Source: Cyanophora paradoxa CCMP329
Lineage: Eukaryota; Plantae; Glaucophyta
NCBI GenBank assembly: GCA_004431415.1
Contig: QPMI01000477.1
Span: 647,618 to 711,617, forward strand
Direction: 5' to 3'
Length of the DNA stretch: 64,000 bases
Within the stretch, counting starts at the first letter, position 1, and the number at the start of each line of letters is the position of its first letter. The translations under genes and the position numbers were made by a program. Positions 39,321 to 64,000 of the stretch are shown piece by piece. The notes beneath the pieces were generated by a model. That model ran no database searches and was not told the origin of the DNA. It saw only the letters and a program-made list of their open reading frames with translations.

Positions 39321-41153
39321 CTCACGTGGATTCTTAGCGATTCGCCGTTGGTTGAAATGAAATCGGCGCCAGGCTCACTCAATGATCAGAGGATCCCCGG
39401 TCTCATACTGCGCGCCCGTCAGAAGTTCAGACGGATCCGGAAGTTAGCGAGAGAGTCGAGCCATTGAGATGAATGGAGAGTAAACTGAATGATTTACAAC
39501 GGACCCGAACATCAAGATCGAAGAATTGATATCTGTCTTTATTTCAGAGAGCTACAACGGTATGAAAAGAATCGCTCGGCATGATCAACCACGCACCCCG
39601 TCAGGCGGTGGGGAATACCGCCAATTCTCATCCACCTATCTATCACACGCACAGAGCACTCCGTTTCGCTGCAGGGCGGATCAGGCAGCGTACACGTACG
39701 GCCGCGATTATACACGAAATCCGGTTACAGCCGCGGGGAGAGAGGGGGGGGGGGGGGGGGGGGGGGAATCGCACTTGGGGTCGCAAGCCGCCGTCGGATC
39801 GTCCTCCTCGGCTCTTTGCGAGATGCCTAAGCCACATGGCTTTAGTTGTGGATCGACTTTGCACCGCGAGCAGGGACAGATCTAGAGGGACAGACCGCTG
39901 AGGATTTCGCCCTTCTTCGGCGTCTTCTCGCGGGTTGCAGCGCGCTTCTTGGTCCGCTGCACGCGTGTGGTGCGCTGCACGGGCTTGCCGTCGCGCGAGC
40001 CAGAGCGCGTGACCGCCGGAGCGCTGACGGGCGCCGAGACGGGCCGAGACAACCAGGCGTTCGCCTGCCTGTGTTCCTCCAGCTCGAGCCTGCAACAGGT
40101 TTTCGCAGCATTCGAGTCATGCCGAGAACGGGGCTCTAGATCTCTATATATATATGGCGCGGAGCTGAAGCGTCATGCATTTGCGCACTCCTGCTGCTCG
40201 ACGAGGGTCAAGTTCCGTGTGCGCTGCACCAAGTAATTGCTCGCGAGCGAGTCGAGCTCGACTTTCTCGAGAAGATCGTCCTAAAGAGGACGCGTACGGT
40301 GAGGCGCGGTGCGCAAGAGAAACAACGCTCAGGGGAGGGAACCAAAGAGGGGAAGGGGGGGGGGAAGGGGGGGGGAGGAGGCCCACCTGCATCAGGACCA
40401 GCGAATCGACTACCACACGCGGCGCAAGGCGGAGCATGATGCCCCCGGCCGTTTTGGACTGTGCACGACATCGTTATGGAAGCCACTGCAACTGTACATG
40501 CGTGTGCGGCACTCAAGATTTTGGCGCGCCTCGAATTTCACGGCAACCTTGAGATAATCGAGCGAGACACCGAGCTGCGAGGGACGTCAAGATCTATAAA
40601 TAGCTAGACCCGAGGGCCGTCTGCGGGCTCTGGGACGTCGACGCGCCCAATGAAAGTTCGAGACATCCGTCAGGTCGACCGTGACGGTCGCTTGGACAGC
40701 GAACTCGATTGACGCCAGATTCACAGACGAGCTGAGAGATGGCGAGAAGCAGTCAGCACAATAAGAATAACAATCTGCAGCCTGGCGGCGGCGCACTAGC
40801 AGTTGGTGCAGAGGACGTGAAGAATTTCCGTATCGCTGCCTGAAAGGGATACTCGACCGAGACGATGCTTAGCAATGCAGATTCGGCGGTGGCGCACCAA
40901 GCACGTTGAGCGGTTTGACCGCGCGTCCCGTGTTAGGATATATATATGTGGGCCTTTGTGAAGCGTTGAGCTCTCGAGCTTGCCCCTTCGCTGTCAATGT
41001 ATTGTTAACCCTCGGAGGTTGATGAGTCACGCGTTGCGGAGGTTGCATTGTTATATTGCATTCGGGGAGGCACGGGGACTAACACGTCCGACGTACCCCT
41101 CGGGGCCTCCGGCCTCTAACTATGCTCAGACTCTAACTGAATGCTGTACCCCC

Positions 41154-41870
41154 TCACTGGCCGAAGTGCGACGGTCCCCACTCGAGGTCGGGGTGGGGCC
41201 ATGGGGGCCTCCGGCGGGGTACGATGCTCCCGCTTGCCAGCTCCATGTACTCCCCCACGGGGTTGTCTTCGTTTGCGAGGTCCCTGTAGTTGCCCTTTAC
41301 GAGATCCGCCGCCGCTTTGCGCCAGCGAACGGCCACGTTGTACGTGTTGTCGATGATGTTCTGCACTGTACCCTCCATGGGTATTAGGGACGGCCTATAG
41401 TCGACCTGTCTCTCACGCAGGTTCAATTCCCTTTGGTAGTAATCCACTGCGTCTGGGAGGGCCCTGAGCTCCAACGGGTGCTGGCCCGGGTCCGACGAGC
41501 TAATGAGCCCGGAGCGTTGCAGCGCGTTCACAGCCGCCCGCAGCATGATTTTGCCTACCCCCCGCATCGCGTTATTCTGCTCGGGCGTCCCGTACCCCCC
41601 CTGCGGCCCGTAATCGTTGTAGTAGCTCTCTATTTCGACTGTGGCCGGGCTAGTACCAACCCGAGGCTGCACAAAGCCGTACAGCCATGCCATAGCGTCG
41701 TTGTCCGCGGAGCGGCCGCTCTCGGGAGAGGATGGGAACACTTCGATTTTGAAGTCCCTGGTCCGCCGGTTGACTCGTGTCATTAGGTTGAGGGGGTAGC
41801 GCGCATTGCCGAATTTATCAGGAAAGAGGCGGTGTAGCTTGAACCATGCTTCCTGATCGCCGTACGACAT
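41154..41870 (-). CDS. GNAT-fold acetyltransferase
   Basis: Acetyl-CoA motif A-like MRGVGKIMLRAAV followed by LELRALPDAVDYYQRELNL (motif B-like). Intronless; AGAAATTCT lies upstream of the ATG. Confidence 0.6.
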   Translation of the reverse strand: MSYGDQEAWFKLHRLFPDKFGNARYPLNLMTRVNRRTRDFKIEVFPSSPESGRSADNDAMAWLYGFVQPRVGTSPATVEIESYYNDYGPQGGYGTPEQNNAMRGVGKIMLRAAVNALQRSGLISSSDPGQHPLELRALPDAVDYYQRELNLRERQVDYRPSLIPMEGTVQNIIDNTYNVAVRWRKAAADLVKGNYRDLANEDNPVGEYMELASGSIVPRRRPPWPHPDLEWGPSHFGQ

Positions 41871-41907
41871 TCGCTCGCGGCTCGCTGAGAATTTCTACCT
41901 GTACCCC

Positions 41908-42601
41908 CTACTCGCGGTCGGGGTACTTGTAGCCGGGCATCAGCCTCGCGCGCTTGCGCATCTCCGCCTCCTCGGGTAGCCAGTTCTTCGGGTCGTTGCT
42001 CCACTCCTCCCATTCGCGTATGTCTCGCCCGACGTCACGTGGGGCGGGGCGTTTATCGGTGGGGCGGGCGGGCTGGCAGGGCCTGGCGCCGGGGTTGAGG
42101 CCCCTGTTCCACGAGTACTCGGGTACTCTTCCCAGCCCAGGGTACCAGATTTGCCGGAATCGGCTCAACTTCGAATTGGGGCTTTTTGGTGTGATACTCA
42201 TAGTTCGTGACGTACGCCGTCACAGCCGAGCGCAAGCGCGAGAGGTCGCGCAAATTTACGTCGTCCCATTCCGAGTCCCTTGCCTTCGCGTACCGCTCGA
42301 GGATTTGCATGCGAATGTGGTCCGGGAGGGTCGAGAGTATGCTGAGCTTGGAGCCCAGGGCGAACCAGATGCGCTTGAACTCGTCGATAATCCTGCCCTC
42401 GTCGTGGCTCCGGACGTATGAGGCCCCGCCATAGTTGTAATGGCTGTCCAGCCACCCTGCCCGGGCCAGCTCCAGCACCGGCCAGGGTTGGCGCTGTCGA
42501 TTCGGTCGCGAGGCCTGCTCTACCACCCAGCGTCTAAGGTCCTTGACCTGATCTATGAACTGTGCGATCACGTCCTTGGGCGCTTCCTCTGCATCCGACA
42601 T
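41908..42601 (-). CDS. Hypothetical viral protein (probably one frameshifted ORF)
   Basis: Overlapping ORFs 42053-42613 and 41908-42201 with protein-like composition; no recognisable domain. Confidence 0.45.
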
Positions 42602-42651: not shown

Positions 42652-43317
42652 ATGCATACCGATACAGATTGCGAGACTTGCGAGAACTTGCAACAGGGGA
42701 GCGCGGCGTGGCACGCGGCGCGCCGCGAAAAGCTAACTGCCTCGAACTTTGCGGCTGCGTGCGGCATAAATCCCTGGAAATCCAGGGCCCGCCTCTGGGC
42801 GGAGCTAAGCGGCATAGCGGAGGAAAACAACTTCGACAACCCTGCGCTAACCTACGGGCATGACTATGAGCCCTTCGCGGTCTCTCTCTACAAAACGTCG
42901 AACAACAACGTGGACGTGCAACATACTGGATTGCACGAACATAAGGAACTGCCCTTCCTGGCGGGCAGCCCGGACGGGCTGATTGGAAGCGATCGTATAC
43001 TTGAAATAAAATGCCCCTACAAACAAGAACTCTACGAAAAGGTCCCAACTTATTACATGCCCCAGCTCCAGGGCCTGCTGGACATAACGGGCCGCGAGTG
43101 GGCCGAACTTTTTTGCTTCACTCCTCTGCGCGTGCAAACGTGGTACGTCAGACGGGACGAGAGGTACATCAAGCTCATGAGGAAGTGCTTACATCTATTT
43201 TGGATGCACGTCAAGGAGGGCACGCCGCCCGAGCCCTACAGCGATCGAATGAAGTCAGAGAACCTCAGCGAGGAGCAGGCGGCGCTGCGCGAGTTTAAGT
43301 CGTACGCCCTCCTCTAG
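42652..43317 (+). CDS. YqaJ-family (lambda-exonuclease-type PD-(D/E)xK) viral recombination nuclease
   Basis: QQGSAAWHAARREKLTASNFAAACG, YGHDYEPFA, FLAGSPDGLI, ILEIKCPY and YYMPQLQGLL are the canonical YqaJ motifs. Confidence 0.93.
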   Translation: MHTDTDCETCENLQQGSAAWHAARREKLTASNFAAACGINPWKSRARLWAELSGIAEENNFDNPALTYGHDYEPFAVSLYKTSNNNVDVQHTGLHEHKELPFLAGSPDGLIGSDRILEIKCPYKQELYEKVPTYYMPQLQGLLDITGREWAELFCFTPLRVQTWYVRRDERYIKLMRKCLHLFWMHVKEGTPPEPYSDRMKSENLSEEQAALREFKSYALL

Positions 43318-43367
43318 TGTCCGGACCTTTCCAATACTCTATATGATTATTGGGAGGGTCCGGACAC
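43317..43367 (+). terminator. 20-bp stem-loop directly after the YqaJ stop codon
   Basis: gtgtccggacctttccaata (43317-43336) pairs with tattgggagggtccggacac (43348-43367) with two G-U pairs. A second, imperfect hairpin lies at 43388-43439. Confidence 0.6.
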
Positions 43368-43696
43368 GTCTCTTGGTCAGACTACTTCTGTCCCAGGTCT
43401 TTGGAATCTTAATATAAATTTTCCCGGGACCCGGGACAGGGCTTGGTCGGACTCACCGTAGCTTGGTGTAGCTCAGGCCCAGGCCGGGTAGGCGAGTCTG
43501 TAATGAATCAGACCGCGCAGGATTTGGTTGAGCTGCTCGGTGCAGGGGGCGGGAAGGCGAGGCCGCGGAGGGCCATAGAGACGTAGCGGAAGGGTGGGGG
43601 AGGCGGCCCCTGTTATCCCACATGGCGTCCACTATGGCGTTGTGGACCACTTGCTCTGGAGGGCGGGACGGGCCTGCGCGCACCGTTTCAGGGCCC

Positions 43697-46514
43697 TCAG
43701 CAGCCCTCGAAGATGTTGGAGTTGGCGTGCACCAGCGGGAGGGAGGGCTGGGACGGCGGCGGCGAGCCCGGGGCCGAGCCCTGGGTGGCGAGGGCCTGCG
43801 AGGGCGCCGGCTCCAGCTCCATCTCGAACATACCGCCCTCGACGTCGACGGTCACGGGCGGCGAGGCCGGGATCGCGCCGGCCTGCTGCGTGGCGGGGAC
43901 CTGAGCCGAGAAGTTCTCGAGCCGCCACTCGCGGCAGCCCTGGCACTCACCTGGACGAAGACGGTGCGGTTGGCGACGGGCGGCGTCGGCAGGGCCTGCG
44001 CGGGGGCGTCACTCACAGAAGCCGAAGGCGCCGGCCTTGTGGGCGGGGCGTCGGGGTCGCGGGGCGTGCTATAGGCCTCCGAGCCCTCCGATTCAGAGTC
44101 ACTCACCGGGCTGAGAGGGTGGGGTGAGAAGAGGCCGAGGCGGGCCTTCTTGGCGGGCAGGAGGTGGGAGCCGTTGAGGGCGCAATCGGCGCCGTGGGCG
44201 CACCTCTCTCCGTAGGTGGGGCAGAGGGCCGGGGCGAGGGCGCCGGAGCCAAGGGCGCCGGAGCCGAGGACGCCGGGGGCTGGAGGAGGCGGTGAGAGGG
44301 GCCGAGGAGGAGAGGAAGGGGAAGGGCGCGGGCACCGGCGCCGGGACGAGGCCCTCCTCCAGCAGCCGCATCTGCGCCTCCTTCGCCTTCTCGTCGATGC
44401 GGGCCTCGAACGTCGCCCAGTTGAAGCCGACGGCGTCCGCCTCCGCCAGCTCGGGGAGGCCGTGCTCGTCGAACGCCAGCGCGGGCCGCCCGCTGAAGCC
44501 GAACGGGGCGGGGGCGAGAGCGCGTTGTCCCCGACGCCCCAGACGGCGCTGAACGCCGCATCGTCCCAGCGCGCCTCCGCCTCCGCCTGGCCCTCGTCCC
44601 TTGCCTCGTCCACCTCCTTGGCGGAGAGCGACCCGATCTTGATGATGGAGGCCTGGATCAGCACAAACTCGCGCTGGAAGAATTGGACGAGCGGGATGGT
44701 AACTGCGGGAGAGGGGGTGAGCGGGGAGAGCGCGGGGCGCAGGCCAAGGGCGGGGGCGCAGGCCAAGGGCGGGGGCGCAGGCCAAGGGCGGGGCGGACGC
44801 ACATTCGATGCCGTAGGCCACCTCCTTGATGTAGCGGCCCCGGCGGCCGATCTCCTTGGCCAGCATGCTGCACTCCTTGCGCGCCGGGTGGCCGTGGCCC
44901 CACTCCATGGCGATCATCGCCTTCGCCAGACGGACGCCCTCGATGTGCCACTCGTCCATCAGCGCCTCCAGCTTGGCGCAGATGCGCATCCAGAAGAAGA
45001 CGCGCTTGAGCTTGTCGCGGTCGAATTCGGCGTCGCCGCTCTTGCTGCCCCAGTCGCGCAGGTCCGTCTCCTCCGCCTTCTTCACCTTCTCGTACCAGCA
45101 CTTGATCTTCTCCGCCTGGCGCTGGAACTCGTCCGCCCGCGCCGTGAGAACGTCCGACTCCTCCTGCGCTCCGAGGGCCCGGGGTCAGGAGGAGAGGCGG
45201 GCTAAGCGGGGCGGCGGCGGACCGTGTGCGAGAGCTCGCCGACGATCACGGAGATGGCCGCCGAGAGGATCTCACGGGCGCGGGCCGGCCCGTTTGGGTG
45301 GCCCTCGCGCAGAACCTCCTCCAGCTTCAGCACGGCCGTCCGCGCGAGATCGCGGTGGCGCTGGCGGGTCTCGTCGCTCCGGCCCTGATCCACGAGAAGC
45401 TGGAGCTGGGGCCGCATGCCGGAGTCGCAGACGCTGGCGTACTTCAGAAGGGCCGCGCAGGAGAGCACCTTCTGCACGCTGACCAGCCAGTACGCGTAGC
45501 CCAGCGGGCTCTCCGCGCTCGGGTTCTCTCCGACCTGCGGACGCGACCTTAGCGCGCGCAGGGGCAGGGAAAGGGGAAAGGGCGGGCTCTCGCGCACGTA
45601 AATGTCATCGGCGCAGGAGAGGAACATGTGATCAACGACGTCGAAGAAGCCGCCGGACGGGAGCGTGCCGACGCCGTGGTACGCGCCTTGGATGGTCTCG
45701 CCGGCGCAGATGCCGGCCTGGACGGTGACGGTGTACTGCGAGGCCGGCGGCCCCTCCTTCACGTAGACGAAGTTGAGGTCGTACTTCTTGGCGTACGTCG
45801 GGTTGATGCGCTTGGTGACGATGACGTAATCGCACCGAACGCCGAGGCCGGACGGGCTGGCCTTCTCCTTCTCCGTCACCGACGCCAGGCACTGATCCCG
45901 CGCGATCAAGAGCTGCAGCGGCCCGCGCGTGAGCAAGCGCGGGCACGCGAGCGCAGGGAAGGGCCCTCACCCCGTGGGCGCCGCCGCTGCCGGATTTGAG
46001 GTCCGCGAGGAACTCCTTCTGCTCCGGAGTGCCGGAGAAGATCGCGCGCGGATGGAAATCGCGATGGAGCGCGATGCTGTTGAAGCAGCCCGCCGCCGCA
46101 TTGTCGGACATCAGCAACAGCGCCACATCGCCGTGCGTGAAGCCGTACTTCGCCTTCACATGCTCCGGCAGCTCGTGAATGCTGTAAGGCACGATCTGCG
46201 CGCGGGGCACGCGAGCCGGGCATGTGAGCCGGGGCCGAAGCGGTGCGGGCGAAACCGCGAACCTCGTTGAACTTATTCACCGGCGTGAACTGGCCCTTGG
46301 TCTTCAAGCGCTTCGGGTGGCCGTCCGTGTTCTGGATCTTCTTCAGCCCGCCGAACGGCTCGAAGCGCGGCACGCCGGCCGAGTTGAACACGCTATCGCA
46401 GGTCATCGCGTTGAGCGCCTCCTCCGCCGACAGGCTGCCGAGATCGCGGGCTATGCTGTCCTGCTCGCCGGGCTGCTGCTGCTTCGCGCACGAGCGGAAG
46501 GTCGCCGCCTGCAT
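43697..46514 (-). CDS. Intron-containing viral protein of unknown function (6 introns)
   Basis: GT-AG introns at 46262-46196, 45970-45913, 45597-45535, 45222-45164, 44802-44703 and 43950-43901 join the listed ORF pieces. One frameshift near 44510. Confidence 0.65.
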
Positions 46515-46816
46515 CGCGAGTGTTACTGCCCGCGATGTCTCAACGGATTCCGTTCAACGTCGTACCCCGCTGGCTTGTTCCCTCCCCAACTCGCGAAGAC
46601 TCAGACTTGAAGCCCGCTTCCCCCCCCTCAAAATGCGTACCCCCTTGGGCTCGAACCCCGGTCGGTTTCTCGCTTTTTTTTGACTGCCCAGTCCGGCGAT
46701 GCAATGCAGGCCGCTCGTTCAAATCGGCTGGGAACTTGGCGCCAGAACCTTCGCAGCGCGCGCAGCACTCCCAGCAGAGCGCGCGCAGCACCGGCGGCAG
46801 CATCGGCGGCAGCAGC

Positions 46817-48479
46817 ATGTCTCGGCTCGCGCTCCCTCCGGAGATCCCGGCTAAGCTGGCGAAGAACACGCTGTACGACGTTCTCTGCGTCGGCGACAGC
46901 TTCGGCGTCGATTGGACGGTTTTCGAGGCCGGCATCAGCGACCAGGCGAAGGAGGCGCAGGCGCGTGCGCTGGAGGATGGCATGCAGTTCAGCCCGAGCA
47001 GCAAGGATGTGCTGCGCAAGACCGAGCTGGCCGAGCGCAAGCGCAAGCTCGCCGCGGCGCGGACTTTGAACGCCGAGGGTGCCCCCGGCCCGTCGGTGCA
47101 GTTCTCCATCGACTCCGTCCTGTCGCGGCTGCGGCTCGCGGAGGTGCTCGCTGCCTCTTTCTCCCTCACGCGCCCGGCTCGCAGCGGCTGAGGCGCCGCC
47201 GCGCTCGCAGGACGCGGACGTGCGGGCGATGCACGCGGCGCTGAACATGACGGAGGAGAACTTCGACACGCCGAGCAAGCCGAAGCCCGGGCGCGATTCC
47301 GACGCCCGCCGGCTGTTCGCGGCGCAGCGCCTGCGGCTGCTCATGGGCGCCGTGCCCCGGCACATCGCCAAGGGCGAGTGGCGCACGATTGGCCTGCTGG
47401 CGGGCCCGGAGGAGTTCTACTTCAACCGCATGGCGGAGGCGGCCCCGCACCTGCTCTGGCTGCTGGTGCTCAGCTCGGACCCGGCCTACACGCCCGAGGT
47501 GCGCCCCGGCCGCCCGTGCAGCCGCGGCCGCCCTCCCCGCCGACCCCGCCGGCCCGCAGAGGCTGGCGAAGGGCATCATGGGCGTCGAGGCGCGCTGCAT
47601 CATGCGGAACAGCCGCGCGTTCATCACGCGCCACGAGAGCTCGGCGGTCTGGGGCGAGCGGCCGGACACCGGCGTCCTCACCGACGCCTACGCCATCCGC
47701 ATCGTGCTGGAGGCGGCCTGCCGGACGTGCCGGGACCGCCACGGGCGCCAGGGCATCTGCGCCTTCGACCTGGTTCCTGAGTTCGAGGTGCCCGGCGTCA
47801 CCATCGGCGACCGCGTGCAGGTGCGCCGTTTCTATTTGGATGCTATTTAGATGCTATTTAGACTATTTAGATGCCATTTAAACCCCCTCGCAGGTCATCC
47901 GCCGGTGCTCGATGCCGGACTCGCACGGGCGGCCCATGATCCACGGCGCCGTGAAGTACGTGGTGCCGCGGCGCACCCTCGCCCTCACCTTCTTCGTCCC
48001 CGTCTTCGACAAGGCGGCCGCCGCCGCCGCCGCCGCCGCCTCCCGCCCCGCCCCATGCTCGCGGCCGCGGAGTCCTCGGATTCCGACTCGGATTCCGAGG
48101 CGGAGCGCGAGGCCGAGGCCGCCGCCGCGGCCCGGGCGCTGGACTTCACGGAGGAGGAGCTGGAGCGGGCGCGGAGCCTGCCGCGCGCCGGCCAGGCGAT
48201 GGCCGCGGCCTTCCAGGCGGCGATCGGCGAGGCGACGGCCTCCGCCTCGGGCGCCCGGGCCGGCGGCAGCATGATCACGGCGGAGGGCCTCGCGCGCGCC
48301 ATGCGCGTGGCCCAGGCCCAGGCCCAGGCGAAGGCAAGGGCAAGGGCAAGGCCGCCTACATCGACCTGCGGTTCGAGGAGGAGGAGGCGGGTGCCCCGGC
48401 GGCGCGGCGCGATCTCGGCGAGGAGATGGAGGCGGCGGCCCCAAGGCGGCCGGTGCGCCCTCCCGCCCCTAATTTCTGA
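46817..48479 (+). CDS. Intron-containing viral protein of unknown function (3 introns)
   Basis: Introns 47144-47210, 47499-47559 and 47821-47893 give MSRLALPPEIP...PHLLWLLV...CRTCRD...HGRPMIHGAVKYVVPRR. The acidic/Ala-rich tail has frameshifts. Confidence 0.65.
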
Positions 48480-48507
48480 GCCTAGGGCGTTCCAGAGGCG
48501 CAAAGGA

Positions 48508-51500
48508 ATGACCCTGCCCACAGAGGAGGAGCTGGAGGCCGAGCGCGAGATGGAGATGGAGGCCGCGCTGGCGGCGGCGGCGGACGCGAAGGCCTCGCGC
48601 GAGCTGGAGGTGGCGGAGGAGTACGCGATGGAGCTGGAGCGCGAGCGCGAGCGCGAGGGCGAGCCCGATGCGGAGCTGGCGGCGACGGTGGAGGCGGGGG
48701 CGGGGACACCTTCGAGCCCGAGCCCCCGTCGACGAGTTCTACCCCTCCCGCCCTCCCCTCCCTCGACGGCGCCCCGCCGCCGCCCATCGAGGAGTTCTCG
48801 GACGACGAGCCCGGCGACGCCGGCCCAGGCCGCCCCTCGTCTCCCCCGCCGCCCGCCCGCCCCCGTGCCCCCGCCAGCCCCGCCGCCTCCGACGTCTCCT
48901 GGCGCCCGAGCGGCAACCCCTCGGCCTTCAGTCCTTCCGCCCCTCGCAGCCCTCGCAGCGCCCGCCGCCCTCCGTCCAGGGTACCCCCTCGCCCGCCCAT
49001 CCCTCGCCGCCGCGGGGCACGCCCGTCGCCACGCCCGCCTCCTCCCTCGGCCACATGCCCCTCCGCCCCTCCGGCCCCCGCGCCGGCCGCCTCTCCCGCC
49101 GGCCCAGCAGCGGCGCGAGCGCGAGCGGCAGCTGCTGCGCGATCAGCGGGCGGAGGCGGAGGCGGACCACGACGACGGCCAGGCGTCGGAGAGCGACGGC
49201 GAGCCGCCGCGCGCCACCAGGCTGGAGCTGGCGCGGGCGGAGCTGGCGGTGCAGCCGCGCGAGGCGCCCGAGATCGACATGTCCAAGTACGACGACGTGA
49301 CAACGTACAGCAAGGACAACAAGTCCAAGAAGGAGGCGGCCATTCAGGATGCGCTCCGCCTCTTCGTCAAGAACAACGTGCGCCCCGCCCCCTTAGCTGC
49401 GCGCCCCGCCCCCTTAGAGGCCGGAGGCGGCCGTGGCCCAGCTGCTTAAGGCGCTGGGCCCGAGCCGCCTTCGGCCGGTGCGCCCCCTCCCGCGTTCGAA
49501 CCCCGCTAACCCCTTTTGCCGGCGCAGCGGATCGTGCGCCAGAGACCCTACGGCCCGAACTCCCCGCCCACCTTCTACGTCGAGCTCCCGAACCTCTTCG
49601 TGTACGACAAGGTCAGCGCGAACAGGCACGCCGGGCGCGGGACGATGAAGGAGGTCATCCAGCTGCTGGCGATGACCTTCCACAAGACCTACGAGTCCAA
49701 CCCCGGCTCCTTCGAGTTCACCTTCTCGAAGGAGGTGCTCTCGGGGCGGACGCGCACGTTCGTGGAGGAGTCCCTCCAGCTCGAGGACGTCTGCCCCGAG
49801 ATGCCCGTCATCCCCGGCTTCGCCTTCGCCTGCGACACGCGTGCGCCGCCCGTACCCCTGCGCCCCGCCCCGTACCCCGCCGACGCCCCTTGCGCAGATT
49901 TCGTGGTGCGGGCGCCGCAGGACAGCACGGGCAGCGCCTGCGTCCTCGTCATGACGCACGAGGAGGCACGGGAGCGGTACGCGGGCTACATGAACACCTG
50001 CTACATCCAGGGGCGCCTGCCCGCGGGCATCGAGGAGGCGACCGAGACCTGCGACTGGCCCACCGTGTACGGCATGCTGCACCCCTTCATGCCCAACGTC
50101 GTCAAGCACCTGGCGGACAACGGCTACGTGACGGCCGACGAGTTCGGCTACGCGGCGGCCGTCCTCTACGCCTTCAACCTCGTCGGGCCGTGGAACTTCT
50201 GCGACAAGCCCGTCTTCGACCGGGAGCCGCGCGCGGAGATCGAGCCGCCGTCCGAGGGCGCCATGCTGCAGTACTGCGGCATCATCAAGGGCCAGTCGGG
50301 CACAGGCAAGTCGATGGTGACGCAGATCATGACGGAGTGCCTGCCGCCGGGCCGCGTCTGCGTCTACCGCCCCTCCAAGGGCTCGGCCTTCTCGGAGCAC
50401 GGCGGCGAGGAGGCGATCTGCATGGTGATGGCGGAGGGCCTCGACCCTAAGGCCTGCTCGGAGGAGGAGCTCAAGATGCGCTCCGGCGACGCCTACTCCC
50501 GCAACTTCAAGAACGTCCGCGGCGACGATGTGCGCACCAAGGCGACGCGCAAGGTGCTTGTCATCGTCTGCAACAGCTTCCCGCAGGTGCGCCCGTTCCC
50601 CTGCCCCCTTCCCTTCCCCGGCGCCCTTTCTCACTTGCCCCGGCGCAGCTCGAGAACCGCATGCTCGAGTTCTTCGCCCGCGTCGTCCTGATCCCCTCGA
50701 CCACAAGCCGGCCAAGAAGCGCACCTACCTCCACTCCGACATCCGCGAGAACGAGCTGCCGGCGCTCATGGTCGCGGCCTTCACCTTCGCGTGGAAGATC
50801 ATCCACGCGCTCTCCGACGGCAAGGCCTCCTGCATCCAGGCCTTCGAGCCGGCGTGGCTGCGGGCGCAGCGCCTCGGCTTCTGGCAGGAGACGGCCTCCT
50901 GTCCCCTCACCCGCTTCATCATCGCCCACTGCGCCGTCGACCCCACCACCTACGTCGCCGCCCCGAACACGGAGGGCTACATGACGAGCGTCGCGGGCAT
51001 CGTCGAGTACATCGCGCGCACGGAGGGCCCCGACACCTCCGCCGCCGTCGGCGCCGACATCGAGAACGGCCGGCTGGACGAGACCCTCGCCGGCTTCGGC
51101 TCCTGGTGCCGCCCCTACTCCTACAAGCTCGGCGGCGTCTGGCAGACCTACATCCGCGGCATCGTCCCCAAGGCCCCGCTCTCCCTCGGCGAGAGCCAGC
51201 CGGCGCTGGAGGCGATCGCGATCCCCGTCGCCCAGTTCAAGGACCCGGCGCCCGACGTCGGGCCCTTCCTCGTCAAGCCCCACACCAAGGGCAAGGGCAA
51301 GCGCACCCGCAACTCGGCGCCGGCCTTCCTCCCGCCCCAGCCCCCGCCACGGCCCCCAGCAGCGCCCCGGCCAGCAGCGCATCGACGAGATGCTGCCGCG
51401 CCAGGTCCGGCCCCGCGTACCCCCGCCTTCCCTCCCGTACCCCCCTCCCCCGCCCCCCTCCTGATCCAAGGGCAGGGTACCCCGACGAACGGCGGCGCGG

Positions 51501-53585: not shown

Positions 53586-53612
53586 GGCTCTGTACTGTTG
53601 TATTCAATGCCT

Positions 53613-53897: not shown

Positions 53898-53934
53898 TCT
53901 TCTGTAAGTAGAAGGGCCAGAAAATCACTAGCAA

Positions 53935-54275: not shown

Positions 54276-54285
54276 TGGGCAAGAC

Positions 54286-54641: not shown

Positions 54642-55305
54642 GCGTCATTTACGTCCGCGTCATTTACGTCACGGAGTTTGCCGGCGACTCGGGACTCGGG
54701 CCCAACTTCTCCCGGTAAGTTCGAGACTTGAACTCGGCGGGGGTACCCCCGGTGTCCTAGTGTCCTAGTGTCCTAGTGCTACTAGCTAGGTGGTATCGAT
54801 ATCTAGCTAGCTAGCGCTAGCGCTTGCTTAATTAATTAACCTGAAGGGTCGCGTCATTTACGTCAGCGTCATTTACGTCACGGAGTTTGCCGGCGACTCG
54901 GGACTCGGGCCCAACTTCTCCCGGTAAGTTCGTCACGACCAGTAGCTACTAGTACCGCTAGTACTACGTAGTACTACTTAGTACTACTTGGTACTACTTA
55001 GTACTACTAGCTTAGTACTAGTAGCCACCGATACTGGTACAGCTTTTATAGATTTAAGCATTCATTCAATGTGAATAACGATAATAGTAATAATAATAAC
55101 GATAAGTAATAGGGATACCCTATTTTTCCAAGTCTCGAACTTACCGGGAGAAGTTGGGCCCGAGTCCCGAGTCGCCGGCAAACTCCGTGACGTAAATGAC
55201 GCTGACGTAAATGACGCGACCCTTCGGTAACCTCCGCAACCCTTCAGGTAAATGTCAGGTAACTTCAGTTGAGTTAATTAAGCAAGCGCTAGCTAGCTAG
55301 ATATC
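54642..55305. repeat. Candidate replication origin: ~90-bp unit in two direct copies and one inverted copy around an AT-rich core
   Basis: Copies at 54642-54730 and 54843-54932, inverted copy at 55129-55225. An outer IR spans 54798-54835 / 55274-55305. TAGTACTAC arrays at 54959-55020; AT-rich tract at 55044-55127. Confidence 0.85.
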
Positions 55306-55951
55306 ACAGCTCTACCTTGCCCAAGTTGATGGTATCTAGCAGGGCCTGCTCCTCCAAGTCTGCACCGCCGCCGCCGCCCAGCGCTAGCGCTAGCTCGATA
55401 CCGCCTCCGGCCTTGATCTCCCTTGGCTCCAGCCACCTGAGGGGCTCAGGCCACCTCCTCCTGGTGAAGCCGGTATCGTTGCTCTTGTCCAGCTTGAGGT
55501 AGCGGTAGGGCGCCGGCGCCGGCCAGTCCGGCCTGTGGCCGCTTGCCTCCTTGGCTATGTCCTTGGGCCTACGCGGTCGCAGGTCCGCCTTGGCCTTCGC
55601 CCTCTGCAAGGGCCCAGCGCCTTGAACTTCGGTGCCTTGGTCGCCGGCAGGGCCTTCGGCTGGGGCTTCACCGCCTTCGGCTGCTGAGGCCTTAGCTGCT
55701 TCGATTTCGGCATACTTCTTGCTCATAAATGAGAAAAGCGCCTCGAAGTCGGCCTTTATCTCCTCCTTGGTCCAGGATGTCACCTGATCCGGGTCACCTG
55801 AGAACGGCGCATCGAACGCCACGTGGAGCGATTTGCAGGCCTGAGCTATCATTGGCTCGGGCCAGGCCAGCTCGATCAGCTGAAGGTAGATGTTCAGGGC
55901 CTTGTCGAGCTTGGCGCCCTGAGAGACTAGCTGGGAGATAGCGGGCTCCAT
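55304..55951 (-). CDS. Hypothetical protein between iteron clusters
   Basis: 215-aa uninterrupted ORF; upstream CATTTTCT motif. Confidence 0.6.
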   Translation of the reverse strand: MEPAISQLVSQGAKLDKALNIYLQLIELAWPEPMIAQACKSLHVAFDAPFSGDPDQVTSWTKEEIKADFEALFSFMSKKYAEIEAAKASAAEGGEAPAEGPAGDQGTEVQGAGPLQRAKAKADLRPRRPKDIAKEASGHRPDWPAPAPYRYLKLDKSNDTGFTRRRWPEPLRWLEPREIKAGGGIELALALGGGGGADLEEQALLDTINLGKVEL

Positions 55952-56035
55952 GGTACAGCAGAGCTTTAGAAAATGGCGCCAAGTCCAAGTCCTTTTTTAC
56001 GGGCGAGGCCTGGGCCGGGGCCAGGGCCGAGTCCC

Positions 56036-56087
56036 AACTCCGTGACGTAAATGACGCTGACGTAAATGACGCGGACGTAAATGACGC
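56036..56087. promoter_or_regulatory. Triple GACGTAAATGACG iteron / CRE-like cluster
   Basis: aactccgtgacgtaaatgacgctgacgtaaatgacgcggacgtaaatgacgc matches the core of the 54.6-55.2 kb repeat. Confidence 0.7.
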
Positions 56088-56596: not shown

Positions 56597-57377
56597 ATGG
56601 CCACCGTCCGCAACGCCAACGAGATCGACCCCGCCAAGCTCGCCTTCGAGATCGACGCCACCGGCCGCATCAAGGCCAAGTACGACGGCCTGCAGGGCCT
56701 CATGATGTACGCGCCGCCCATGGTCACGATCAACCCGTGCATCAACACAGAGCAAGGCAAGGCGTGGAGCGACGAGAAGAAGGCCTTCGTCATGGAAGAA
56801 AACGGCGGATTTTACACGCTGGACCTCACCGATCTCAGCGCCGTCGACGGCCAGACGAACCCAGCCGCGGACGAGTTCCTCAAGCTGCTGGAGGCCCTGG
56901 ACGCGAAATTCTGCGAGTTCGTGCAGCAGAACCAGGCCAAGCTCAAGGTCTCGCCCGGCCGCTCCCTCTCCAAGGATCAGATCTCGGTGCTGCAGACCCC
57001 CAGCGTGCGCATCAAGGTCGACAAGGAGTCGGGCCAGGCCTTCTACAAGTACCTCAACATGCGCATCCGCACCCAGACGATGGCGGGCAAGCGCAAGACC
57101 GTGCCCGTCGTCGACATGTCCAACTACCTCATCACCGAGCGCGCCACCATCGGCACCGGAGACCTGGTGGCGGCGCTCATTAAAATCGACACCGCCTACG
57201 CCATCCCGAGGGCAAGTTCGGCCTCAAGTGGTCCTTCCTCGCCGTGCAGCAGTGCAAGGTCGGCGCCTTTCGCTTCGCCGGGCGCGCCCCGAGCTGGCCT
57301 TCAAGCCCTACGACAACGAGGCCGATTTCGAGCCCTACCTAAACCCCGAGTCTATGTACGCAGCCCCCATGCAGTAG
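56597..57377 (+). CDS. OB-fold single-stranded DNA-binding protein (NCLDV/T7 gp2.5-like)
   Basis: FLKLLEALDAKF helix and IGTGDLVAALIKID, then after a 1-nt shift near 57207 GKFGLKWSFLAVQ; acidic aromatic tail YDNEADFEPY after a second shift. Confidence 0.75.
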
Positions 57378-57430
57378 CTCGGACGAATAAATTGTGAATT
57401 TTTGGTGCAATTGATTACACGCGTTTACAC

Positions 57431-58233
57431 TCAAAGGCCGTTGAACTTGCCGCCCACCGCCCTGGGCTCCGCCGCCGTCGAGGCCGCCGCCTCCGTCACC
57501 TCCTTCATTACCTCCGGGTTCGCGTTCGCCGCGTGCACCGCCAGCACCGTCTGCACCAGGGCCATCCCCAGGCGCGCCTCGGGCCCCAGGGTCACGTAGC
57601 GCGAGTACTTGATCACCAGCTCCTCTAAGATCGGCTGCACCTGGTCCATCGAAGAGAGCGTCGCCTGCCCGAGCCCGTCGAGCTTCAGGCCGATCGGATC
57701 GTACGCCTTGTTCAGGTGCTCCAGCGAGTGCATGCCCGCGATCAGAAAGAGGCGCGCCGCCTCCAGCGAACCCCGCGTGCTCAGCTCGCGCTGAATCTCC
57801 TCGTACTCTTCCTTCAGCTCGTCCAGCGGCGTGGCCAGGCTCAGCTTCTTCGTGGACGTAAGCTCGCCCCCGAACGAGCGCCGGTACTGCGCGATCTGTC
57901 GCAGGACCTGCTTCTTCTCGTCCACGTCCACCTGCGCCTCGTCCCGCGGCCGCTCCTGCAGGTCGATTCCCAGCGCCTTTTTCACGCTCTGCTCCTTCTT
58001 CTTCGTCATTTCGATGTGCTCCTGCACGCTGAAGCCCGCGCCCTTGCTCGGCGCCGTCGGCGGCACCGCGGGCCCGTCGCCCGGCAGCGCCATCCTGTCG
58101 GCCTTCGGCGCCTTCTCCCCTTTTCCTTGCCCTCCTTCGCGGGGCGGCCCTTCTTCCGGGGCTGCGGGATTCCCACGGGGTTCGGCCCGTCCACGGCCAG
58201 CGCCTCGAAGCCAAGCATCGCCGAGGGGTCCAT
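57431..58233 (-). CDS. NCLDV-type membrane/envelope protein (DUF5767-like)
   Basis: PLDELKEEYEEI...LEHLNKAYDPIGLKLDGL...ILEELVIKY...GPEARL resembles the conserved LNxxxDPxxxKLDG / ELxxKY / PExKL pattern of phycodna-/mimivirus proteins (recalled from memory). The N-terminus joins via a frameshift near 58120. Confidence 0.7.
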
Positions 58234-58262: not shown

Positions 58263-58591
58263 TCACTCCGAGGTCAGCTCGACGAAGAGCTCGATGTAAA
58301 GCCAGAGCTTCTCGCGCAGCTCGGGCCCGCTGCCGTAGAAGAGCGAGCGCACGGCCGAGGCGTACTCCTGCGGCAGCCTCTCGAAAACCGAGTCGTCCTT
58401 CGCCTTGATCAATTCCGCCTCCGCGTTGATGTGCCTCCTGAACAGAACGATGACCGCCGTGGCCCGATGCCGCGCAGCGACTGGATCTGCGCCCGCACCC
58501 CCGGCTCCTTGGCCTCCGGCTCCAGCAGGTCGAGGAAGCGGCCCCAGCGCGCCTCGATTTGCTCGCCCAGCGTCGCCTCCGTCGCAGCCAT
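58263..58591 (-). CDS. Small helical NCLDV-like protein, frameshifted
   Basis: MAATEATLGEQIEARWGRFLDLL... / LIKAKDDSVF...REKLWLYIELFVELTSE*. Confidence 0.55.
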
Positions 58592-58610
58592 GCTACGCGT
58601 GCTTCAGAAA

Positions 58611-59802
58611 TTAGCGTCCGCCGCTGCCGCTGCCGCTGCCGCTGCCGCTGCCGCCGCCGCTGCCGCTGCCGCCGCCGCTGCCGCCGCCGCCGAGGAGGGC
58701 GTTTGCCGCTTGCTCGTACATTGCCGCCTTGCGCGCGCTGGTCTCGCGGAGGAGGGTGGCCTGCGCGGTCTCGGTGCCCTTCACGAGAGCCTGGAAGGCG
58801 GTTTGAATCGTGGTCTGGCTGCGCTCACCGGTGCCTGCCATTCCGGCGACGGTTCCCAGGCCCCGCAGCCCCGCAATCGAGCCTAACGTTGCGGTATCCG
58901 CATAGGGTCGGCTTCCTACGGCCGGATTCACGACGGCCGGCAGCAGGTTCTGGTCCGCGTACGGCGTCGCCGTCGCCAGCGCGGGCCCGCGCGTGCCGAC
59001 CTGATCCATGAGCATCGCCCCGAACGGGTTGCCCCGGCTGAAGTCCACGTCGTTGCGCCCGTAGGGCTTGTTGACGGCGCTGCTGATGTTGGCCGTCTGC
59101 GCGTTGAACATGGGCGAGAGGTCGGGGTGTAGCCCGCGCGCAGCCCCTGGGGTTCTCCGTCGTCTGCCCGTAGCGGCCGGCCGGCCGAGCAGGTTCTCCT
59201 TCTCGATCTCTTCCATCGTCTTGATCCAGCCGCGCTCGCGCGCCCACTTCATGACGAGATCATCGTAGTTCATCGGGAAGAAAACCTTCTGGTACTTGTC
59301 GAAGCGCTGAATTTCGATATCCTGCTCGATCATGTTTGTAATTCGCTCCAGCAGCTCGGGGTAATATTCCTCGAGCATTTTGGCGACGCCCGGCTGCTTC
59401 AGGTCGAAGGCCGTCATCGCCCACTGGTCGAAATCGCGAATCATGATTTCCTTCCGCAGCACGAACGCATTCTCGACGTCCTCCTCGCTGATCTGTCGGC
59501 TGGGGTAGGTGTTCTGCAGCTGCTGTCGGATGCCCATGCGCATCAGCTTCTCCATGGAGGGCGTGTACTTCATCGCGGGCAGGGTCTTCGTATTCCCCCG
59601 CTGAGCCCCAGGCCACGTGCCTGATCCTCGGCGTGTAGACGTCCGCCTTTGTCCCATCTACGACGGGCACCTCGGGCATGACCGTGCCCGGAAGGAACTT
59701 GTTCACGATGCCGTCCATGTCGGCCTTCAGGTCGTTCTTCAGCGACTGGCGCTGCTTCTTAGAGCCCTCCCCAATGTCCATCATAGAGTGGCCCTTCGTC
59801 AT
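58611..59802 (-). CDS. Putative virion protein next to MCP, with Gly/Ser tail
   Basis: ORFs 59260-59802 and 58611-59657 join at a homopolymer near 59597. Core RDFDQWAMTAFDLKQPGVAKMLEEYYPELLER. Confidence 0.6.
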
Positions 59803-59881
59803 CGTGCCTCGGTTAGGATCCCAGTGGGAAAATTTATTGGTTCACATCGGCCTACCAAGCACACCCTGGCTAACAAGCAAT

Positions 59882-61264
59882 CTAATGGAAGCGGCGGTAG
59901 GCGCCGCCGTTGGTGAAGGTGATCTCGTTGTAGTAGCGGCAGTAGATGTCGGCCACGGGCAGGTTGGGTGCCGTGTAGGTCTTGAGCGTGGTGAGCGTGA
60001 GCTCGATGGTCTTGAAGGCGCCCATGTCGAGGCCGCCGAACATCTTGGTGTTGTCCGCCACGTCCGTGCCGAAGGGGAGCGAGTAGATGAACTCCGTCCC
60101 GAACTGGCCCACGTTGCGGGGCTGGATATCGCTGCTGTGGGCGTCGTGGGCCGCAAGGGTCACGTTCCCCGTGGTCCCGGCACGTTATCGTGCCCGACCA
60201 CGGGTGCGGGTGCAGCGCGTCGGCCACGTCGGCGGCCGCCGTCCCGTCCATCGAGGTCACGCCCCGCAGCAGCTCGAGGTGCTTGCGCGTGGGGCGTGCG
60301 TGTGCTCCTTGTGCGCGATGGCCGTGCGCAAAAAGTGCGCATCGTGGTTCGAGCTGTCGACCACCTTGATGTTGTCGCACTTCAGCTCGATCTTGTCGAG
60401 CGGGCGGAAGCGCCAGAAGTGCTCGCCGTTGTCGGTGTGCGGCTTGTCGCGCACCACCACGATCAGCTCGTAGCAGATCCCCGTGAAGGGCAGGCGGATG
60501 GCGGCGCCCGACGTGAACTGGACGTGGTAGTGCTGCACGTACTTGCCGGCCCACGTGAACGAGTTCGGGTGCAGCGCCAGCTCGCGCGAGTCGATGTGCA
60601 CGTAGCGCAGGATGAGCTTGGTGTCCAGGCTGACGCTGCTCGTCAGGCTGGTGTTCGTGTGCAGGCCGCCGTCCACGAAGGAGGCCGTCACCTCCTTCTG
60701 CGACGCAAAGGTGATCTGCAGCTTCATCTCGTTGCCGGTCCGCGGATCTTGTGGAGGGGCACGGCGAACTTTCGACCGAAGCCCGTCGCGATGCGGATCG
60801 GCACGTACAGCGTGTTCGGGCCTTGCCCGGCGGCGCAGCGGCTGGTGCGCCCAGAGGTTGTTCACCATGTCGACGTGCTCGGTGACGGACTTGTCGTCCT
60901 CGAACTCGCCGTAGATGGCGTCGTGGTGGCCGTCGTACTCGTGGATCAGCTGCGTGCCCACGAAGATCTTCACCTTCTTGAGCAGCACGTAGCCGGCCTT
61001 CGGGATGTAGAAGTGGTCGGCGTTCGTCAGCGCCGGCAGCGTCACCCGGAGCCAGGCGTCGTTGAACATCGGCGCCGAGTGCGGGATGACGATGTCGACG
61101 GTCTGGCCGAAGGTGACGCCCGACTGCACGGGGCTCACCTCGAGCACCTCGTCCACGAACGGCATCGCCGTGTCGAAGGTCTCGTGCACGTGCACCGACG
61201 CGTCGGAGCTGCGCAGCGAGTGGTGCAGGGCGGTCGTGGGGGTGGAGATGAGCGCGGAAGCCAT
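59882..61264 (-). CDS. Double-jelly-roll major capsid protein (nucleocytovirus type)
   Basis: FGQTVDIVIP, AWLRVTLPAL, GYVLLKKVKIFVGTQLIHEY, LYVPI, FIYSLPF, GGLDMG and C-terminal YYNEITFTNGG align with NCLDV MCP landmarks. About 460 aa once several 1-nt shifts are corrected. Confidence 0.9.
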
Positions 61265-61314
61265 GGTGGTTTAGGGATGCGTTGAGAAAATTTTTTGGGT
61301 GGACGCCTACGTTA

Positions 61315-63256
61315 TTAGAGGGCGCGGCCCCGTCGCGCCAGGTCCGCGTCGTACGCCTTCTTGCGGAGTGCGTCCGTGATCGCAGACCAGTCGCGTGTGC
61401 CGTTAAGATAACCCAGGGCAAGTCCTTGGCCCAACATGAAGTAACGCTCTGGATCCAAGTTCATGAGTTGCTGGGCCCGCTCCTCTACGCGCCGCACACG
61501 CTCCATAAAGGGGCCCTTTGCCGCAGATCCGAGCGGGTCCGCTTCTCGCTCAGCTTCGAAGAATTTCACGACATCCCCGCCCAGGTCCGAAATATCACGG
61601 TGCTGCTCTGCTATCCGTGCCTGTGCCTTGTTGACTCCAGCTGCCTGGGCTTGGGCTATCGATGCCAGTTGGTTGTAATCGATTTCTTCTGCAAGGTATT
61701 TCGCAACGGCGGCGTCCCCTGCAGCGCGCGCGATTTCGGGCGATACGCTCACAAGGAATCCCTCCGGCGAGCCCGATTGGCCGCGCGCTCCGCTTCCGCC
61801 TCCTCGTCCATGGGATCGTCTGGACTGGCTGGATTGCCTGGAGCACCGGAGCGAATTTTCTTCAGCAGCCCCGCACGGCGAGCTTCTGTCGCCTCTTTCA
61901 CCTTCTTGGCGGCCAGTTCAAGCGCATCGTTTAAGTCCATCGTCGTATACCCGGGTCTCCGCCCCGTATCCTTGTACGCGGCCCTGCGCTTGTCCATGGC
62001 TTCCATCTCGCGCGGGGACGAGGGGGCGATTTCTATCCCGCGTTTGCGAGTTGAGCCTGGACGGCGACGGGCACCCGCTCGAGCACGGCCCTTGCCGCCG
62101 CAACGGCCACCGCCTCGGCCGCCACCACCTCTGGCGGGCGCGAGGGCCCCGCCTGTGGCTCGGGCGGCGGCGGGGGTGGCGGCGGGGCGGCGGCGGGGGC
62201 TGCTGCTCCGCTGGGGGCGCCGACGGCCGGCCACCGTGTCCGGGGCTGCGAGGGCCGGGCTGCGGCTGCAGCGGTGGCGTCTTCGGCCCGGGGGGCGGAG
62301 GCGGCGGAGGCGGAGGCCCCGGAGGCGGGGCCCCCCCTTCGTTGTCGGAGTCTGACTCGATCATTTCGTCTCTGGGTTCCTTGGATGGCAGGGCCTTCTG
62401 AATGAGGGCCTCGCGCGCGCCCTTGCCCGCCTTGATTGCTCTGCCCATGGCCGCCTCCGGGAAACTGGCCTCGATGGCCTCGTTGTCCCCGTCCGTGATG
62501 CGCACCTTCTGCTCGCGGCGGGCCTTGATGTACTGTTCCTTGTCCATCCGCTTCTTCGCCCGCCTTTTCTCCCTGGGTACGTCGCGCTGGCGGCTCTCGT
62601 CCGGCCCGGCCCCTCGCTGTCCGAGCTCGAGGGCGGCTCGGCCTGGGCGAAGGGCTGGCGCGTGTTGCGGTTCGTCCAGTCGGGTCGTACTTCCTCCGAT
62701 CAGCTCCTCGGGCTTCTTGTTCTCGCGCGCGTAGATGCTCGTGGGCTTGAACTCCTCGCCGTTGATGATGTACTTGTAGTAGTAGTACGCGTCCTCGAGG
62801 TTCATCGGCCCAGCGTCTCGAGGCGCTTCTTGCGCTTCAGGAATTCGGTGATCTGATCTCCTTCGACTTGCAGAACTCCCGCACGCCCGGCAGCACCGTC
62901 AGGTTCTTGCCGTCCACGTCGCAGGCGCCCGCTCCCTTGGCCTTCAGGTTCGCGTGAAGGCCGACTGGCCCATCAGCCAGGCGCGGAGCCCTCCTCGTAC
63001 TCCTCGTCGAGGCTCGACTCCATCTGCTGGAACTTGTTGATGTAGTACGCGTTGGCGATGGCCTGCGCTCCACCTCGGCGAGCTTGTCCGATTGATCGCG
63101 CTCCTCGAACCGAATTTCCGGCGTGGCCTCGCCAGCGCCGTCTTCATCAGCTGCTGAAAGTGCGCGTACTTGTCGCTCTCGAAGGGCGTGATGTGCGGTC
63201 CCGCCCCCGGATCGCGAGCACGTTGCGCGGCGCGAAACGCGAGGCGAGCCCCTCAT
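61315..63256 (-). CDS. Large putative structural protein (multiple frameshifts)
   Basis: Consecutive minus-strand fragments: YYINKFQQMESSLDEEYEEGLRAWLMG, NLTVLPGVREFC, PMNLEDAYYYYKYIING, poly-Pro, coiled-coil C-terminus. May be more than one gene. Confidence 0.5.
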
Positions 63257-63407
63257 TTGCACTTCTTAGGAGCCGGCTTTGAAATTTATCGGTCTTGGCC
63301 TTGTCTTCCTTCCGTCCTTCTTCTCGGCCCCTTCTTCCCCTGCTTCGTCGGGCGCATCGCCACGAATATTTCGCCGGGCGAGACGTCCTCGTACAGCGGC
63401 TTCGGTC

Positions 63408-63522
63408 CTTAGAAATTCGGGCGGCCCTTCAGCTTCTCCTTCGCCTCCTTCACCTCCGCCTTGTGGGCCGCTCTGCCGTTCGTGGGCGCCTTTTTCGCGG
63501 GCTTCTTCTGCGCCTCCGGCAT
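63408..63522 (-). CDS. Short Lys-rich viral protein (may extend by frameshift)
   Basis: MPEAQKKPAKKAPTNGRAAHKAEVKEAKEKLKGRPNF; upstream ATATTTTTCT. Confidence 0.35.
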
Positions 63523-64000
63523 GTTTACCCATCACCAGAAAAATATGGGTTGGCGCCCCGTACGTCTCGGGGAACTGCTCTCCACTGCGCTCGGCGCGTC
63601 CTCTGGTCGCGAAGCTACGGTAGGCCGCGGCCTCTGCCCCATCACGATTTGCCAGAGCCGTGCACGACTCGTCCTGCGTCTGTACACCAATCGCGAATGT
63701 TCTCGACGATATCCGTCGGCAGCGTGGCCACCGCTTGATCTCGGGTAATCCGTGGATCTCTCGAGCGTAAGCTTCTGCATCGAGCGCGCAGCATTCATTT
63801 GCGTATCGATTGGGGCCCAATAGGGATAGATCGAGACATCGGGGTACGGGGTCACTGAGAATTACACTGGTCGGAAGAGGAGGTACCCACAGGATCCCCG
63901 CTATAATCCAGAGGGGCGACCAGTCGCGCTCCGCCGGCGCGCCCCCGGCGTCACCATCAGCTGCCCCGCCCCGGGCCTGCGCAGGCCGTGCGTGCGGTGG

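Follow-up and report, generated by a model that had tools for sequence, protein, structure and literature searches.

The genome assembly of the glaucophyte alga Cyanophora paradoxa CCMP329 contains a 64,000-nucleotide stretch (contig QPMI01000477.1, positions 647,618 to 711,617; hereafter the window) in which host genes adjoin genes of viral type. From approximately position 40,947 to its end, the window holds one copy of a repeated viral element that encodes, among others, a major capsid protein (MCP) of the nucleocytoplasmic large DNA virus (NCLDV) type and a spliced superfamily 3 (SF3) helicase. Depth in short-read contigs is still high up to position 64,000, so the window cuts the element, and the description below covers its left ~23 kb. 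An initial annotation, made from the sequence alone, had read the region as a largely intact provirus related to Yaravirus and the mriyaviruses.

Host locus and left junction

Host sequence makes up the left part of the window and includes an exon of riboflavin kinase as well as a long gene of many exons with Big_1, PKD and TIG domains. All 13 homologues found for the capsid open reading frame (ORF) were EukProt gene models, and the clusters looked up were named Cyanophora paradoxa, which bears out the glaucophyte host proposed initially. Contigs of two DNA runs (X2 and X3) match the host flank from 38,500 to 40,968 without any difference, at depths of 60-66 and 15-19, respectively; both end at 40,968, and depth jumps beyond this point. 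At the junction (40,938..40,968, + strand), a host (AT)5 run is followed by TGTGGG..., and this break, together with the depth jump, moves the probable terminus to ~40,947 from the 41,100 first annotated. The single-copy flank contigs extend 22 bases into the element and stop there, as would be expected at a transition from unique DNA to a repeat. Viral genes do adjoin host genes, given that single-copy host contigs of two runs enter the element error-free, although no short-read contig carries 31 letters on both sides of the junction, 31 bases being the bridging rule.

Major capsid protein

The MCP gene (59,881..61,264, - strand; 462 codons with six single-base deletions) passes Pfam as Capsid_N. 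A model of its sibling P0002 (457 aa; predicted local distance difference test score, pLDDT, 77) is a double jelly-roll, with best matches to the capsids of PBCV-1, faustovirus, SGIV and EhV-201 (Z 33.6-36.1 for the top five). The virophage capsids of Sputnik and mavirus reach only Z 20-21, and no MCP of a polinton-like virus (PLV) was among the matches listed. Against BFVD, the model matched NCLDV capsids at 11-17% identity, and the PDB matches were likewise NCLDV; the second-ranked BFVD entry, A0A2H4YBA8, has no name. Domain and fold thus agree with the NCLDV-type double jelly-roll MCP annotated at first. A contig labelled RNA spans 59,883-61,267, its source being a diverged sibling copy.

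A profile search of 1.84 billion proteins returned 109 MCP matches, and the best of those apparently outside Cyanophora scored only 61 bits, so that no close relative of the capsid emerged there. An N-terminal motif present in 54 of 102 distant matches is absent from the Cyanophora capsid. Trees were built from 94 of these sequences (FastTree) and from 41; both placed the Cyanophora capsids on a long branch together with two unnamed divergent MCPs (support 0.965 and SH-aLRT 100, respectively). One of these two MCPs scores below an ordinary giant-virus MCP in a profile comparison (63.0 vs 80.6). The capsid lies outside the sampled large-virus MCPs, as the initial annotation would have it, but on a long branch and in a 41-sequence tree without a labelled mriyavirus capsid.

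Copy number, intactness and exchange between copies

Thirty-two sibling MCP sequences, some of them fragments, were found in clusters of the EukProt C. paradoxa set, as were 33 DUF5767 sequences (the window copy included) and 17 sibling helicase models longer than 610 aa. The gene numbering of sibling models indicates the same gene order on several contigs. Six listed element contigs have depths of 1,670-2,427 (X2) and 101-643 (X3) against 60-66 and 15-19 in the flank, and short-read depth over the element is mostly 17-41 times that of the flank, a ratio to be taken as a rough guide only, since the contig method gives no copy number. Sibling models and depth ratio together indicate a multi-copy element with ~30 copies, which answers the copy-number question raised by the initial annotation. 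Sibling counts and depth ratio are in approximate agreement and, as far as this rough comparison goes, a large excess of episomes need not be invoked.

Across eight alignments to sibling models, the window copy lacks a single base at 33 sites, has one insertion, located at the edge of an intron, and is free of stop codons; the window MCP differs from P0021 by six deletions alone (456 identities, no substitutions). Short-read contigs hold an extra base at 12 of 12 sites listed (of 105) and 12 of 12 listed (of 129) in the two comparisons. One-directional deletions beside an error-free single-copy flank point to unpolished long-read errors. The breaks therefore look like assembly errors, in agreement with the largely intact provirus with 1-nt indels first described; intactness of the window copy itself is unproven, since contigs drop rare variants.

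The copies differ from one another by module. DUF5767 proteins on three contigs are 98.5-98.9% identical to the type-1 copy, whereas the MCPs three genes away are only 55-61% identical (two contigs compared directly). Helicases fall into two types (91% and 65%), and three intact capsid types occur among the copies. Near-identical DUF5767 proteins beside diverged MCPs, together with the two helicase types, indicate that modules have been exchanged between copies. Exchange of the gene upstream of the MCP is suggested as well, by a joint at 61,294-62,105 that both DNA runs contain and by differing fused sibling models (P0030 and P0010).

Samples other than the C. paradoxa assembly (ENA, Logan) yielded three DUF5767 relatives (56-75%); the lineage thus extends beyond that assembly. 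Scans of viral and metagenome contigs with the MCP alignment gave no useful relatives, nor did scans with the DUF5767 alignment, with P0089, P0122 and P0110, or with the repeat motif described below. A YqaJ scan gave one locus at 26% identity, without MCP or DUF5767.

Spliced genes

The helicase gene (46,817..51,965, + strand) has ~1,519 codons and eight introns, mapped with the 17 sibling models (47,144-47,210, 47,499-47,559, 47,821-47,893, ~48,453-48,523, 49,378-49,527, 49,841-49,897, 50,587-50,648 and 51,405-51,475); the corresponding eight intron-sized gaps appear against sibling model P0181. The SF3 (D5-like) assignment made initially holds, with a Walker A motif at 50,275 and an atlas score of 0.97 to DUF5906/D5-like clusters, but the gene is a spliced one of ~1,500 codons and not a single ORF. 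Single-sequence folding of the N-terminal domain reached a pLDDT of only 36 and gave no usable model. Divergent from the helicase lies a multi-exon gene of no assigned function (43,480..46,520, - strand; several introns, start uncertain), which has a 30-aa motif in common with the helicase N-terminus (E 1.8e-7). Inspection by eye of the divergent gene also noted a Cys/His cluster resembling a CCCH zinc finger (44,150-44,230, - strand) and a possible winged-helix C-terminus near 43,500-43,640.

Five GT-AG joints (47,816-47,890; 44,702-44,803; 43,994-44,106; 43,125-43,193; 53,863-53,926) occur in runs labelled RNA and none in the two DNA runs, among 15 of 115 joints listed. The RNA label is itself inferred, no run being on record as RNA, and bins without RNA cover were not counted as evidence. 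Run X15 has the helicase intron 47,821-47,893 spliced out, and one of its contigs matches helicase exon 49,898-50,581 exactly. Two GT-AG introns (43,456-43,236 and 43,192-43,126, within 43,126..43,456, - strand) belong to a transcript antisense to YqaJ, for which a CT..AC joint at 43,125-43,193 was found in X15 and X17 only, with loose ends at 43,236. This spliced antisense transcript is probably the 3' untranslated region of the divergent minus-strand gene. Element intron donors resemble those of host introns, and the presence of spliceosomal introns in the helicase gene argues strongly for a nuclear phase.

Upstream word and gene classes

A W4-TC word stands 15-38 bases upstream of 17 of the 18 intronless starts, compared with 18 of 438 other ATGs of the element and 33 of 620 on the host side, and is absent before both intron genes (the helicase and its divergent neighbour). 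The stricter W5-TC form precedes 11 of the 18 starts and 10 of the 438 other ATGs. Motif and starts were chosen by inspection, and any P value is therefore optimistic.

Repeat block

Between the helicase and SSB (single-stranded DNA-binding protein) genes lies a repeat block (54,642..56,087) with nine copies of the 15-mer TGACGTAAATGACGC, where 0.08 would be expected. It includes a perfect 90-bp inverted repeat (54,843-54,932 / 55,136-55,225) flanking a 203-bp AT-rich palindromic core (z -23.8), and two further arms beyond it. The block is the best candidate for a putative origin, and is likely an origin or an enhancer. Some copies lack 55,168-56,116 (a deletion joint in X3) because of direct repeats in the block. 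The 15-mer holds two TGACG words. We take these to be like plant as-1/ocs bZIP sites, in which case the block could be an enhancer bound by host factors.

Other genes of the element and its surroundings

A 238-aa terminal ORF (41,154..41,870, - strand) belongs to an eight-member cluster in C. paradoxa; its motifs presumably resemble those of GNAT acetyltransferases by eye, an identity without support from Pfam, PHROG, NCBIfam or PDB. The adjacent gene of no assigned function (41,908..42,601, - strand) is probably one ORF split by a frameshift, given that a contig labelled RNA (X17) runs across both parts. The YqaJ/lambda-type PD-(D/E)XK exonuclease (42,652..43,317, + strand) is recognised clearly, as first annotated (Pfam E 7.5e-30; phrog_434 E 2e-39). 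In DNA and RNA-labelled contigs, a minority of copies has a different, shorter YqaJ start at 42,640-42,691.

A cluster of short intronless ORFs occupies both strands of 52,015..54,573, as judged from frames and starts, and two of them have hydrophobic segments by hydropathy. Within the repeat block, a 215-aa ORF (55,304..55,951, - strand; three-member cluster) lies between direct repeats and is present only in some copies, in line with the deletion joint. The SSB gene (56,597..57,397, + strand) has a frameshift near 57,204, where short-read contigs hold one more base. Its product is a probable gp2.5-type protein with an oligonucleotide-binding (OB) fold: the atlas placed it at 0.94 to Nucleocytoviricota DUF5871/DUF2738 clusters, whereas its recognition score of 1954 is below the 2300 threshold and the ORF had no match in Pfam, PHROG or PDB, so that the OB-fold SSB annotated initially stands as probable. 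For the DUF5767 protein (57,431..58,233, - strand; 267 aa in the sibling copies, with a single frameshift in this copy), the family assignment was recovered (Pfam E 1.6e-13), while the membrane label attached to it was unsupported in a simple hydropathy scan.

Two intronless genes of no assigned function, with starts at 58,591 and 59,802 (58,270..59,802, - strand), were defined from frames and fused sibling models and had no significant Pfam match. Beyond the MCP, 61,310..64,000 (- strand) holds a large gene of no assigned function that starts at 63,256, a small ORF of basic composition with its start at 63,522 and, at the window edge, a truncated gene rich in errors. Paralogy of the genes starting at 59,802 and 63,256 was suspected and was unsupported on comparison. 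The small Lys/Arg-rich ORF (63,270-63,522, - strand) bears the W4-TC word and is a candidate DNA-condensing core protein. Among 28 ORFs scanned with Pfam, there was no polymerase family match, consistent with the lack of DNA or RNA polymerase noted earlier. HUH motif matches in the 23 kb numbered three, all in frames not taken as coding, and Rfam gave no match.

On the host side, riboflavin kinase (Pfam Flavokinase) lies at 9,240-10,050 (+ strand), with a divergent gene at 7,400-8,800 (- strand) that is TPR/HAT-like by eye. A single very long multi-exon gene, or a cluster of genes, fills 10,800-38,400 (- strand); it encodes Big_1, filamin-like, PKD and TIG domains as well as an extended Ser-Pro repeat (16.6-18.2 kb), and its product has the appearance of a giant cell-surface protein.

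Comparison with known viruses

Mriyaviruses have been defined by MCP, ATPase, viral late transcription factors 2 and 3 (VLTF2/3), RuvC, HUH, helicase and PDDEXK genes (Yutin 2024). Of the Mriyaviricetes markers, the NCLDV-type MCP, SF3 helicase and PD-(D/E)XK nuclease are present, and the others were unseen in 23 kb. Further hallmarks of the class are an MCP within the clade of Yaravirus and the Pleurochrysis endemic viruses, a 35-45 kb genome lacking DNA and RNA polymerases, and the genes Mriya_1, 48, 50 and 51. Integrated large Nucleocytoviricota would instead be expected to carry PolB, an RNA polymerase and an MCP nested among those of large viruses, and polintons, PLVs and virophages a Polisuviricotina-type MCP, pPolB or an integrase, and terminal inverted repeats; neither polymerase nor integrase was seen in the 23 kb. 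In the portions available of the mriyavirus paper and its supplements, DUF5767 is not named and SSB is a feature of gamadviruses and not of Yaravirus (PMC11253617; 10.1101/2024.02.29.582850). The element works like a mriyavirus-grade virus; membership of Mriyaviricetes and kinship with Yaravirus are unproven from 23 kb, with no named mriyavirus capsid compared.

The closest likeness in gene content described in that paper is to Gamadviridae (Pleurochrysis endemic viruses, PEVs, and Phaglo-G, one of the NCLDV-like dwarf DNA viruses, NDDVs; PMC11253617, 10.1101/2024.02.29.582850). These have in common with the element an NCLDV-type MCP, a PD-(D/E)XK nuclease, an SF3 helicase behind an N-terminal domain of unassigned fold (the PEV2 gene spans 4.56 kb), a probable gp2.5-type SSB (PEV_26 there), an algal host and no polymerase seen. 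However, Gamadviridae possess HUH, ATPase, VLTF2/3, RuvC and minor capsid genes, none of which was seen in 23 kb of the Cyanophora element, and gene order in PEV2 differs. The element has spliceosomal introns, ~30 copies and capsid swaps, whereas the available text on gamadviruses mentions no integration. By analogy, the 5' 'frameshifts' in gamadvirus helicases might be overlooked introns.

Other work touches on the host or on the lifestyle. A preprint describes Mriyaviricetes-related embedded regions in a Glaucocystophyceae assembly, from the same host class and of the same virus grade, possibly the same family as the Cyanophora element; its accessible text gives neither anatomy, copy number, introns nor ends, and reads the regions as mainly accidental insertions (10.1101/2025.04.19.649669). 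The link to a glaucophyte host is therefore less novel than the initial annotation supposed. Methylated giant endogenous viral elements (GEVEs) have been reported in C. paradoxa (PMC12344493), and 366 MCPs were counted in its assembly (Bellas 2023); six Cyanophora MCPs inspected from Table S2 of that study differ from the window MCP by eye. Integrated NDDVs have been described in haptophytes (Roitman 2022), and other nucleus-dependent nucleocytoviruses are described, in the part of the source available, as showing no intron invasion (10.64898/2026.08.29.747986). The punuivirus GEVE of Chlamydomonas has the same split between intron-bearing, host-like genes and genes with an AT-rich viral promoter, but is 617 kb long with its own RNA polymerase and demonstrated reactivation, whereas the Cyanophora element is small and multi-copy, with no polymerase seen in 23 kb (10.64898/2026.10.09.758095). 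A small two-part design of spliced genes and viral-promoter genes, which resembles that of the latent punuivirus, is new here. Zoravirus (VC102), VC134 and VC218 PLVs are likewise small and integrated with an NCLDV-like capsid module, but, compared by description, are 20-30 kb long with RVE or tyrosine-type (YR) integrases, none of which was seen in the 23 kb (10.64898/2026.06.19.733378). The literature on mriyaviruses, NDDVs, PLVs and Cyanophora viruses yielded no anatomy of the Cyanophora family, although the bioRxiv supplements may hold one. What the Cyanophora element adds to this record is an end that can be seen, an estimate of copy number, and the introns, promoter word and exchange of capsids; the host association is already in the preprint.

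Interpretation and rival explanations

The element in the window is probably one of ~30 integrated copies of a small virus whose capsid is of the giant-virus type. This virus is likely a temperate relative of the mriyavirus grade that replicates in the nucleus and would depend on RNA and DNA polymerases of the host. The steps that we infer build on what was observed: the element is repeated, its capsid has the NCLDV fold, its transcripts are spliced, nearly all its intronless genes have an upstream word in common, and capsid genes have moved between copies. The helicase and its divergent spliced neighbour would form an early or latent module transcribed by host RNA polymerase II and spliced by the host, while the intronless W4-TC genes would constitute a second programme for recombination and virion proteins. 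Helicase and SSB may open the inverted-repeat block, from which a host polymerase would copy the DNA. Recombination of the YqaJ type between copies could swap capsid genes. TA runs would be the insertion sites of new copies, and the enzyme responsible would be encoded outside the window; an HUH nuclease and, given the TG end, a retroviral-type integrase are candidates.

Several points weigh against this reading. Neither virion nor free DNA has been shown, and no ATPase, minor capsid, VLTF, RuvC, HUH or integrase gene was seen in 23 kb, so that packaging, late transcription and insertion functions are not visible there. The best MCP matches outside Cyanophora are weak (61 bits), the one distant match tested (P0065) came from ordinary giant-virus contigs, and the capsid grouping may be a long-branch artefact. 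The RNA status of runs is inferred and depth cannot rank genes. Finally, one ORF that bears the upstream word loses its start to the intron-shaped joint 53,863-53,926, which blurs the line between the two gene classes.

An unlikely alternative is that the element depends on a helper, as PLVs or virophages do, and has an NCLDV-like capsid; integration would then be the work of an RVE or tyrosine integrase, and a co-infecting giant virus would activate the late genes. The element end starts with TG, and six of the 18 starts read TCTA, which we take to resemble the late promoter of CroV and mavirus. Groups combining NCLDV-like capsids with integrases, of Zoravirus/VC134/VC218 grade, have been described; yet they are 20-30 kb long, whereas neither an ATPase nor a minor capsid gene has appeared within the 23 kb seen here, and the combination of YqaJ, SSB and SF3 helicase is that of the gamadviruses (10.64898/2026.06.19.733378; PMC11253617). 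An RNA-labelled contig spanning the MCP also argues, weakly, against this alternative. Relics of a large giant-virus insertion, passively amplified and gaining introns during decay or domestication, would fit the methylated GEVEs of C. paradoxa (PMC12344493), the mostly accidental insertions envisaged in the preprint (10.1101/2025.04.19.649669) and the host-type introns. Decay is hard to reconcile with an end that falls sharply at a TA run, with reading frames free of stop codons, with three intact capsid types swapped between copies and with a capsid without the N-terminal motif of 54 of 102 distant matches, which makes this origin distinctly improbable. The lack of a short-read contig with 31 letters on each side of the junction would fit a chimera in the assembly, or host DNA joined to a free virus present in the culture, but this account is barely credible: single-copy contigs of two runs go error-free 22 bases into the element and stop at the expected repeat break, siblings lie on many contigs, and 13 further runs of the same organism contain most sampled words.

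Within the favoured reading of an integrated mriyavirus-grade relative, a more specific proposal is made tentatively, as possible rather than probable: an undescribed temperate lineage present as a 30-copy, still-inducible provirus family in a glaucophyte, with insertion at TA runs without a classical integrase, a spliced latent and a separate late programme, and capsid exchange. Mriyavirus-grade viruses have been proposed as the closest living relatives of the giant-virus ancestor, and their replication site, transcription and integration have been inferred from metagenomes. These points can be tested directly in an easily grown alga with dozens of near-intact copies, whose ends and spliced transcripts are visible and which offer candidates for promoter and origin. 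We know of no glaucophyte virus particle. If the proposed inducible provirus family is real, C. paradoxa would serve as a model in culture for how viruses of mriyavirus grade replicate and integrate, and could lead to the first such particle.

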